DNA of 58,715 nt from NCBI GenBank assembly GCA_964588505.1, contig CAZPPQ010000001.1:1-58715 (forward strand), given 5' to 3'. The DNA comes from an uncultured Gammaproteobacteria bacterium (GTDB lineage: Bacteria; Patescibacteriota; Patescibacteriia; UBA9934; GWF2-40-263). Position 1 is the first letter of the stretch; the number at the start of each line of letters is the position of its first letter. The position numbers and the translations under genes were made by a program. Positions 55,043 to 57,103 of the stretch are shown piece after piece. The notes under the pieces were generated by a model. That model ran no database searches. It was given only the letters and a program-made list of their open reading frames with translations, and was not told where the DNA came from.

Positions 55043-57103
55043 TTATGATTTGTGGATTCGAAATCCGGAAAGCCACGGCAACCGGAGAACGCTCGGCGGA
55101 AACAGCGTCTGCATATAAAGACGGGCGACGACAATGGCTGTAAAGAGACTCACCACGACTCCGATCGAAAGCGTGAGCGCGAATCCACGCACGAAACTCG
55201 AGCTCAAAAAATAGAGAACCGTGGCCGAGACCAATGTGGTGACATTGCCGTCGCGGATGGCGCTCCACGCGCGGGCAAACCCTTGGACAATCGCCGATGG
55301 CAGATCGCGGCCGGAAGCAAGCTCCTCTTTCATGCGTTCGATAATAAGGACGTTCGCATCAACCGCCATGCCGAGCGACAAAACAAAACCAGCGATCGCC
55401 GCAAGTGTGATAGTAACTCCGAACATCCGATAAATCGCCAGGTTCAAAAACGCGTAAAGGACGAGCGCTAACACGGCGATCAATCCCGGGAGACGATACG
55501 CAAGAATCATAAAGGCGATGATCAGAACAAAACCGACAAAAGCCGCCCGGATGCTCGCGTCCATTGAAACTTTTCCAAGTGTCGGGCCGACCGTTTGCTG
55601 GGACAATAATTTTACAGGAACAGGCAAGGCACCGGCATTCAGCCGCTGGACAAGAAGTTTCACTTCTTCAAGCGTAAAATCCCCGGTAATCTGCGCTTGG
55701 CCGCCGTAAATCGCGTCCTGCACCGTCGGAGCGGAAATCACGTTGCCGTCCAAAAAGATGGCGACCTGCTTGCCGACAAGCCGGCTCGTCAATTCACCAA
55801 ACAGTTTGCCGCCGTCATCATTAAAATTAAGCGATACGTACGGCGCTCCGCTTTGCGGATCAAACTGCACGGCCGAACGTTTCAAATGCTTGCCGGAAAG
55901 CTCGGTATTTTTCCACGGGGAGGCCGGCGGAACAATGTCAAAAATATCCGCAAGCGGCATCACAATACGCTGAAGACTGTACACTTTCACCGGGCGCGAT
56001 GCTCGCTTGTAGATGAGATGGTACCCGAAGTCTGATTCAACTACATCCGAAATGGTGCCAATCGCTGTTCTTTTTGCGGCTTGTTCAAATGGCGCGACCG
56101 TCTGCCCTGGAGACACCCACCCCAAATCCCCGCCTTTTTCAGCCGAACCTCCATCTATTGAATATTGCTTGGCCGTATCCGCAAAATTTTGCAAAGTCGT
56201 TTCGTTTTTCAGCCGATTGACGAGCGTGGTCGCGTCGAGTTGCGTCATTCCGCTCGTACATCCCGTCTTCCCTTCGGAACAAACAAGAATATGTGACAAT
56301 TGCATTTCTTCGCTGTCCGATACGCCAAGATACTTGATGATGTTCAGGCCGTTTTCATCCTCGACCACTTTCGGAACAATGCTACCGACGCGCGTCCATG
56401 AATTCAAAATAGCCTGCATGAGCGGCGTGCCCGCGATCAGATTTTCGAGCTTCCCTTCAGTTGCCGCGCCGTTCGGATCAATCGTATTCGCCTCAAGAAG
56501 CGTCTTGAAATCCGCCCCGCTTCGCGCCTGCGCAAGAACATTTGCCGCGGCCGCGCGATGCTCTTTCTGTTTTTCCTCAAGCTGTTTCTTTTCCTCAACC
56601 GTCGGCTCGCGATCCAATTCCGCGCCCGGCTCTTTGAATTCAAGCACCGGCGTTTCGCCGATTTGTTTGATAGCCTCGGAAACATCGAGCACGCCGGCCA
56701 ATTCCACGATGATGCGGTAGGCATTGCCGGTTACGGTCGTCTGCACCACAGGTTCGGAAACTCCAAACGCGTTCACGCGTCGTTCGATCACATCGCGCAC
56801 GCCTTCAAGCGCGACCGCGCGCTCGCGCTCCGGAATATCTTTCATATCCGCGTCGTACACCAGGTGCGTGCCGCCTTGAAGATCAAGCCCGAGCCGAAAC
56901 GCCTTCTCATCCAGTTTCGAAAGAGCGATGGGCGTCTTTGCATTCACGAAATCCGCTCCGCGATTCCACACGGCCGGAAAATCGTAGACCATGCTCCCCA
57001 AGGTGACCAAAATCAACACGATCCCGAACACGCGAGTCTTCCATCGGCGCTTTGATTTTGCGAAAGAGGCGGTTTGCCGCGTCTTCAGTTTCCATGTTTG
57101 CAT
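55043..57103 (-). CDS. secD: protein translocase subunit SecD with parvulin-type PPIase insertion in the periplasmic P1 region
   Basis: SecD core ([34 protein letters not shown], C-terminal 6 TM). Residues ~266-368 match the parvulin pattern: SHILV...[17 protein letters not shown]...FGYHLIY. Confidence 0.9.
   Translation of the reverse strand: [686 protein letters not shown]

Follow-up and report, generated by a model that had tools for sequence, protein, structure and literature searches.

What is a peptidyl-prolyl isomerase doing inside a protein-export subunit? The question is raised by the secD gene of the window, the 58,715-nucleotide stretch of DNA analysed here, which comes from an Uhrbacteria-like Patescibacteria bacterium with a tiny genome (a 750-kb assembly, 97% complete). 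A first-pass annotation of the window had claimed that its 686-residue SecD, the single match in its genome, carries an embedded parvulin-type peptidyl-prolyl isomerase (PPIase). This claim is borne out by a Pfam Rotamase match at E 5.1e-27 inside a complete SecD. We consider it probable that the protein is a housekeeping SecD with a two-domain parvulin module in the linker between the base and head of its P1 domain, coupling export to prolyl isomerisation.

Both SecDF and the parvulin foldases PrsA, PpiD and SurA are familiar components, and models of the handover from export to folding outside the membrane still draw on contacts that are weak and transient. In the current view of SecDF, P1 binds the chain as it emerges and pulls it by movement driven by the proton-motive force (PMF) (PMC6028853). 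Escherichia coli SurA binds the holo-translocon, and AlphaFold sets both its parvulin domains on the SecDF P1 head (PMC9987972); PpiD-YfgM associates with SecYEG (PMC9643414); SecDF-SecYEG of Mycoplasma bears a dome made of PrsA-like PPIC proteins (10.1101/2025.04.25.650208).

Domain structure of SecD

SecD membership was defined by the Pfam set PF21760, PF22599 and PF02355, with the GG motif PF07549. The SecD order is complete in the window protein, and every domain scores above its curated cut-off: Sec_GG (residues 69-87, 21.6 bits, cut-off 20.3), SecD_1st (101-158, 56.3 bits, cut-off 27), SecDF_P1_head (398-495, profile positions 17-114, E 3.8e-31, 107.8 bits, cut-off 27) and SecD_SecF_C (498-661, 48.9 bits, cut-off 20.5). 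The Pfam scan that the first-pass annotation had proposed thus returns Rotamase and SecD domains alike above their cut-offs. Residues M1, W4 and K5 are near-invariant among 86 homologues, which supports the start call, and K/R-rich residues 5-23, a predicted cytoplasmic tail, precede the N-terminal transmembrane (TM) helix at 19-41. By the established topology of SecD (3AQP), everything up to about residue 500 would lie outside the cell membrane.

Alignment by phmmer with the Thermus thermophilus SecDF (3AQP) gave E 3.6e-78 and covered residues 29-117 and 160-437 of the latter. The base-side part of P1 in the window SecD terminates in the strand ...ETPVLEFKE and matches residues 29-117; the head subdomain, which in characterised SecDF is the mobile, substrate-binding part, is intact. 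Within the TM bundle D582 is invariant in 86 sequences and aligned with D340 of T. thermophilus SecDF, the alignment including GAAVDGNVLSFER; a 2011 Nature paper on SecDF is said to place D340 in the proton path. A Foldseek search with the full-length model found 5XAN (E 6.5e-23), 5YHF and 3AQP, and SurA too. The SecDFs of T. thermophilus and Deinococcus radiodurans (3AQP, 5YHF, 5XAN/5XAP) share with the window protein the N-terminal TM helix, the P1 base and head, the five-helix bundle of RND (resistance-nodulation-division) type and the GG motif. They differ in that SecD and SecF are two chains here, and in that about 237 residues here take the place of a segment of about 42 residues (118-159).

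The limits of this insert were set at residues 160-396 from a flank-HMM (hidden Markov model) over 160 SecDs, alignment with insert-free forms, the 3AQP alignment and the Pfam borders of the insert-free SecD L021 (L numbers are our handles for loci). The segment first proposed (55988-56611, residues 165-372) held nearly the whole insert, and its limits are refined here. Insert-free SecDs of the phylum (L021, L022, L154-L156) have a linker of 14-26 residues between the same flanks, a strand ...LEF(K/R)E and a strand W/F..T.L.GK; in L021 the SecD_1st match ends about 20 residues ahead of the head profile start, at profile position 19. That start, at 17-19, is alike in insert-free, short and twin forms and in the window SecD, which puts the insert in the variable linker at the crossover from P1 base to head, evidently neither within the head nor in place of it. 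The earlier placement within P1 is therefore correct as to the insert lying between the base part and the rest of P1, although the site itself is a linker of about 20 residues outside the head fold. The insert is no less conserved than its surroundings, with a mean column identity of 59% versus 56% for the whole protein.

SecDs of other Patescibacteria classes (L157-L162) have at this site acidic, low-complexity (E/D/S/T-rich) inserts of 96-123 residues, without parvulin and with a conserved terminal motif '...D.L..QL..'. Their presence at the parvulin site marks the base/head linker as an insertion hotspot.

Domain B, a canonical parvulin

The downstream module, domain B (residues 266-368), was recognised at once as a parvulin by its SHILV and FGYHLIY motifs. 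Both are present, and the match is full-length and in canonical order: Rotamase (PF00639) covers residues 271-366 and profile positions 1-95 of 97 (95.1 bits, cut-off 21.7), and Rotamase_3 (PF13616) covers residues 255-364 (E 1.3e-28, 100.4 bits). The predicted fold (AlphaFold) runs b1-a1-a2-a3-b2-a4-b3-b4. Domain B aligns motif by motif with the PPIase domain of Staphylococcus aureus PrsA (2JZV, E 9e-15), residue by residue with SurA P2, and also with archaeal parvulins. Foldseek matched it to single parvulins, among them S. aureus PrsA, SurA P2, Pin1 and Par14 (targets 2JZV, 4G2P, 3IK8, 3UI4 and 6GMP), at template modelling scores of 0.75-0.86, PrsA having 0.86, and root-mean-square deviations of 2.1-2.8 A.

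The active-site residues are strongly conserved. All 79 species have H271 and H362, D317 stands in 77 of 86 sequences, and position 357, Ser in the window SecD and Thr in most relatives, is one or the other in 85 of 86; conservation extends to L327, V336 and F339 of the pocket. We take the set H271/D317/S357/H362 to correspond to H42-D74-T118-H123 of Par14. On these residues domain B is apparently an active enzyme.

Between b1 and a1 lies a C275-x6-C282 loop whose two cysteines are invariant in a set of 86 homologues, in a set of 79 species and in every long (twin-bearing) form of the window's class examined; the pair also recurs in L137, which has domain B alone, and in long forms from other families. 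Since the module would be extracytoplasmic and the genome encodes three DsbA-like proteins, the pair probably forms a disulfide staple beside the active site of domain B.

Domain A and the nested topology

A second, degenerate parvulin had been suggested at about residues 170-260, and it is there: residues 160-262 alone score 32.0 bits against PF00639 (E 2.5e-7, cut-off 21.7), both histidines being lost. The match covers profile positions 9-94 only, and the AlphaFold elements of residues 169-260, the body of domain A, run a1-a2-a3-b2-a4-b3-b4 with no b1 ahead of a1. The missing strand appears to follow domain B, where a return strand, b1' (residues 372-382), aligns with the C-terminal ASHILI strand of short-form relatives (below), the strand in which their catalytic histidine sits. 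At the two histidine positions domain A has N254 on b4 (N/S/I/E in relatives) and R379 on the return strand (R in 74 of 86), so that it is almost certainly dead as an enzyme.

Full-length and insert-only AlphaFold models both have two 23-residue strands, 252-274 and 360-382. Being of equal length, they fit a single antiparallel ribbon, with residues 374-382 as the likely partner of b4 of domain A and with b1 and b4 of domain B paired to each other. The insert-only model (79 species; predicted local distance difference test, pLDDT, 93.4; predicted template modelling score, pTM, 0.78) predicts the insert to be rigid. Structure prediction, which had been proposed from the start as a check, thus gave the fold of the insert but not its placement relative to the P1 head, the full-length model (86 homologues) reaching a pTM of 0.43.

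The strand pairing was tested by mean-field direct coupling analysis (DCA) on 208 long-form sequences (26,691 pairs), in the zero-sum gauge and with gap states and gappy columns excluded, as gap-rich columns otherwise dominated. The top 50 pairs contain b1-b4 contacts of domain B (268-368, 266-370, 268-367, 265-369), contacts of b4 of domain A with the return strand (254-379, 252-381, 252-379, 255-382, 255-380) and contacts of b2 of domain A with the same strand (219/222-377). Other coupled pairs join the ends of the module (167-387, 175-390, 178/179/182-385, 158-398). AlphaFold strands, coevolution contacts and homology to single-domain relatives together support a nested arrangement, in which an outer, circularly permuted domain A (169-260 plus 372-382) encloses an inner domain B (266-368). 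A continuous two-stranded beta ribbon would then run through both domains, and the ends of the module would meet at the P1 base/head junction. The first-pass annotation had placed the two modules one after the other; there are indeed two parvulins, but the first is completed by a strand that comes after the second.

Moving the return strand of the window SecD to the front of domain A in silico did not extend the Pfam match, because this strand is too degenerate. With the whole insert as query, the best Foldseek match was SurA (215-241 columns, 27-31% identity).

Short, twin and decayed relatives

SecDs of a short form, 540-630 residues long with an insert of 121-171 residues, occur in many sister families. 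The elements of this insert follow in the order a1 helix, F..LAK.YSED.GS..GGDLGW, FGYHII, linker, ASHILI and P1 head. A 'SHIL' strand bearing a histidine follows FGYHII in 27 of the 30 single-parvulin inserts retrieved. In native order the short forms match Pfam positions 9-96; when the C-terminal strand is moved to the front in silico, they match 1-96 and gain 5-8 bits. These inserts are circularly permuted parvulins with both histidines. Short-form SecDs (such as L003-L012, L014-L015 and L138-L153) have the insertion site and flanking strands of the window protein and a unit nearest to domain B; they differ in having one parvulin, permuted, and no C-x6-C loop.

By the alignment of the return strand with the short-form ASHILI, the twin is a pair of consecutive permuted units: the SHILV strand that joins them, with H271, serves unit 2, and the last strand closes unit 1. 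Several relatives bear on this. (i) L118 (G411:C13), of 683 residues, has the full catalytic set in both domains, with GHHIV and a return strand AHILI in domain A and SHILL and FGYHLI in domain B; its domain A, re-permuted in silico, gives a full-length Pfam match. L118 looks like an undecayed state of the window architecture. (ii) L106 and L125 retain the b4 histidine of domain A, and L124 the return-strand histidine. (iii) L013, sister to a long form (SH-aLRT, the Shimodaira-Hasegawa approximate likelihood-ratio test, 98), has the dead domain A alone, and L137 has domain B alone, in canonical order. (iv) L020, from the same order as the window genome, has lost both domains. In other classes there are also divergent long-type inserts: L018 (G058:C18, 1035 residues, a single-chain SecDF fusion), L019 (G244:C10, 824 residues) and L016/L017 (f86, about 710 residues), all of them without the C-x6-C loop.

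In a tree of the parvulin units the A units stand apart (SH-aLRT 96) from all B units and 29 of the 30 short units; the B units form one supported set (95) and the A units are long-branched. The tree of the SecD core (92 taxa, quick search) is poorly resolved, with long and short forms interleaved; supported (starred) branches force only 3 of its 13 label changes. The long A branches leave the unit tree without a firm root, and neither tree fixes the direction of change, from short to long or from long to short.

Short, twin and half-decayed forms within one class would make a clean natural series for permutation by duplication. We entertain, as a tentative and on balance unlikely extension, that the insert series is a record of fold evolution by duplication around a permutation, and that the twin rides a proton-driven hinge. 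A single permuted unit (a1...b4|b1) in SecD may have been duplicated in place; b1 of unit 1 may then have been captured by unit 2, giving a nested, active domain in canonical order, after which the outer domain decayed. L118, with both domains active, and the partly decayed L106, L125 and L124 may be intermediates, and L013 and L137 single-domain derivatives. Each swing of the head, in turn, may present the emerging chain to the isomerase, making of the whole a one-piece 'pull-and-fold' machine.

Proposed function

The fusion probably serves to link Sec export covalently with prolyl isomerisation and with the holding of emerging chains. SecYEG would hand the unfolded chain to the outside, where the P1 head of SecDF would grip it for the PMF-driven pull, with the tethered parvulin pair within reach of the emerging chain. 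Domain B would isomerise Xaa-Pro bonds between cis and trans as chains exit the channel; domain A, comparable to the inactive parvulins of SurA P1 and PpiD, would form a rigid stalk and might also hold chains as a chaperone does. The module would thus be the covalent counterpart of the loose SecDF-SurA, SecYEG-PpiD and Sec-PrsA-like contacts seen elsewhere. PPIase activity, action on secretory substrates and coupling to head movement are each what we infer from the sequence. Being conserved, the fusion offers 'Rosetta-stone' evidence for joint work of a parvulin foldase and the SecDF P1 arm on one emerging chain, and it agrees with the docking model of E. coli SurA on SecDF and with the PrsA-like dome of Mycoplasma. 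As a stoichiometric system in a single polypeptide, it makes the coupling between PMF-driven pulling and prolyl isomerisation testable by structural and biochemical means.

Several points weigh against this reading. In a sample of 300 genomes across the phylum, most have a SecD of about 440 residues with no insert; most Patescibacteria do without the insert, and it has been lost inside the long-form clade (L020). The embedded parvulin is not obviously indispensable in its own genome either, given the cyclophilin and the PpiD/PrsA-like protein described below. Parvulin histidines are partly structural in some family members, so that conserved residues are no proof of activity. The position of the module relative to the P1 head and to SecYEG is not reliably predicted, at the full-length pTM of 0.43, and the alignments behind AlphaFold and DCA overlap, which makes these two lines of evidence not fully independent.

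A rival reading denies the embedded parvulins any isomerase activity of relevance. They might be chaperones only, binding or shielding emerging chains, or structural elements that lengthen or stiffen the P1 arm through the envelope: the catalytic histidines of domain A are gone (N254, R379), some relatives retain the dead domain only (L013), and the acidic inserts of L157-L162 indicate that the site tolerates pure spacers. The parvulin domains of PpiD and of SurA P1 are likewise inactive. We nonetheless hold this to be unlikely, since domain B keeps H271 and H362 in all 79 species and D317 and T/S357 in most, and, permuted though their chain is, 27 of 30 short forms still have both histidines. 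Across so deep a divergence, such retention would hardly be expected unless the active site were under selection.

The location of the insert, exactly at the base-to-head crossover and with its ends in contact (DCA pairs 158-398 and 167-387), would also suit a regulatory or mechanical element of SecDF itself, a latch or ratchet on the base/head hinge with no foldase role towards clients. A twin predicted to be rigid (pTM 0.78) would fit such a part, and proline isomerisation or domain docking would gate the swing between F-form and I-form. We judge this, gating included, very improbable: there is no evidence of an intramolecular proline substrate, most SecDFs function without anything of the kind, the full-length model gives no confident orientation of the module towards the head, and L020 lost the insert within the clade. 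The coupling of export to prolyl isomerisation, with domain B as the enzyme, stays our preferred account.

Distribution and reality of the gene

A search of 5.8 billion proteins gave at least 120 clusters at 90% identity that match the window protein at full length (about 660-790 residues) and in their Pfam set; their sources are independent assemblies of NCBI, JGI, ENA and Logan. The closest relatives share 75-82% identity and are likewise full length. A collection with one genome per species has 201 stretches coding for a relative of the insert, and the best 80 of these span it end to end. That the open reading frame (ORF) is an assembly or binning chimera of a SecD gene and a parvulin gene, the mis-assembly against which the first reading had cautioned, is excluded for practical purposes by this conservation of one unbroken architecture across independent assemblies, by flanks that are two halves of one P1 domain and need each other, and by an unbroken frame and smooth composition along secD, no point in its favour having been found.

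The named sources of the clusters are mostly Candidatus Uhrbacteria, and the proteins are called only 'SecD', which hides the foldase in gene names. The survey of Patescibacteria that had been suggested finds the architecture in many genomes of the window's class: the twin is found in roughly a third of 251 sampled genomes of the class, and the short form in many of the rest. In the 300-genome sample the full form of 690 residues is confined to this class; other families of the class, and a few elsewhere (f60, f125), have shorter forms with a parvulin, and divergent twin forms occur in f86, f54 (the 1035-residue SecDF fusion) and f13. Among 1.84 billion representatives at 50% identity, five proteins match the whole insert at E <= 1e-30; of the best 150 matches in this set, about 20 are twin-bearing SecDs or fragments of them, and the rest are of ordinary PpiD, SurA or PrsA size.

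Genomes with an Uhrbacteria-type SecD (L023, L024, L027 and others) are filed under unlikely organism names, such as 'uncultured Gammaproteobacteria', 'Binatia', 'Kapaibacterium', 'Acutalibacteraceae' and 'Vicinamibacterales'. These labels are probably placeholders or wrong record names.

Comparison with known export foldases

Full-text searches across about 8.4 million papers and preprints turned up neither a SecD-parvulin fusion nor a circularly permuted parvulin.

SurA (1M5Y) resembles the insert in having two parvulin domains, one inactive and one active. It differs in being soluble and periplasmic, with SurA_N as its N/C chaperone core, in having its parvulins sequential and both in canonical order, whereas those of the window SecD are nested with the outer one permuted, and in not being joined covalently to SecDF, as the insert is. 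PrsA of Bacillus and Staphylococcus (4WO7, 2JZV, 1ZK6) and PpiD of E. coli (PMC9643414) are extracytoplasmic, membrane-tethered parvulins at the Sec exit, as the insert would be; unlike it, they are separate lipoproteins or TM-anchored proteins whose parvulin is set in a SurA-like NC chaperone domain. No SurA_N family matched the window SecD in Pfam at E up to 0.1. Membership of the insert in the SurA, PrsA or PpiD family was rejected for want of this domain, although it would work in a similar way.

The dome of Mycoplasma pneumoniae (Mdp436/444/489; 10.1101/2025.04.25.650208, 10.1101/2024.09.05.611430) also belongs to a genome-reduced bacterium with no outer membrane. Its PrsA-like PPIC domains sit stably on a Sec translocon that includes SecDF, and one of them retains catalytic residues. 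The dome consists of three large, separate lipoproteins forming a non-covalent chamber, in contrast to the one polypeptide with a small twin module here, and no homology between dome and insert is known beyond the parvulin fold.

Other foldases in the genome

The only other Rotamase match in the genome is L002 (1333..2328, minus strand, contig 11), a membrane-anchored, PpiD/PrsA-like protein of 331 residues. It has SurA_N_3 and SurA_N_2 matches, both below cut-off, and a degenerate Rotamase domain without histidines, with WAFYIIRM where FGYHII is expected. A 211-residue cyclophilin, L163 (1291..1926, plus strand, contig 3), has a lipoprotein signal peptide (LFLGAGC) and is a probable second extracytoplasmic PPIase of the 750-kb genome. 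A 455-residue open frame with an FKBP domain is probably trigger factor. A role of the embedded parvulin as sole extracytoplasmic foldase was rejected in view of the lipoprotein cyclophilin and the PpiD/PrsA-like protein.

The secD locus

Coordinates of the secD features are collected in Table 1. The gene of the partner subunit, secF, begins 4 nucleotides past the secD stop, in the same operon; its product has SecD_SecF_C (E 5.7e-52) plus Sec_GG, and its start was picked from the sequence, at M33 of the listed ORF. The ORF opposite secD was rejected as a gene, being most likely a shadow ORF within secD.

Table 1. Features of the secD locus, in window coordinates (aa, amino acids)
Feature	Position	Strand	Basis
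secD coding sequence, 686 aa including twin-parvulin insert	55043..57103	-	ORF, translation, Pfam
N-terminal TM helix, aa 19-41	56981..57049	-	AlphaFold helix
P1 N-terminal, base-side part, aa 69-158	56630..56899	-	GG motif, SecD_1st
Whole insert, aa 160-396, about 237 residues	55916..56626	-	flank-HMM, alignments, Pfam borders
Domain A body, degenerate permuted parvulin, aa 169-260	56324..56599	-	PF00639, AlphaFold, column frequencies
Domain B, parvulin in canonical order, aa 266-368	56000..56308	-	Pfam, conservation, alignment, Foldseek
C275-x6-C282 loop between b1 and a1 of domain B	56258..56281	-	conservation
Return strand b1', aa 372-382	55958..55990	-	short-form alignment, AlphaFold, coevolution
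P1 head subdomain, intact, aa 398-495	55619..55912	-	Pfam; 3AQP alignment from residue 160
TM bundle, TM2-6, aa 498-661	55121..55612	-	Pfam SecD_SecF_C
secF, partner subunit, 301 aa	54133..55038	-	ORF and Pfam; ATG at 55038 likely
ORF opposite secD, 235 aa	56013..56720	+	inside the insert-coding region of secD

On the 5' side of secD lie an ORF of 118 residues (57173..57529) with no family matched, a 216-residue fusion protein of a PCC domain and DUF1653 (57600..58250, minus strand) and a small protein (58306..58620, minus strand) that resembles the '23S rRNA intervening sequence protein' family, below cut-off. The two genes 3' of secF (50572..52350 and 52439..54067, both on the minus strand) encode between them a predicted membrane protein of 542 residues, with no Pfam family, and a VirD4/TraG-type coupling ATPase of 592 residues, with TrwB_AAD_bind, TraG-D_C and T4SS-DNA_transf matches and a treble-clef zinc finger; together they may form a type IV secretion or DNA-uptake module.

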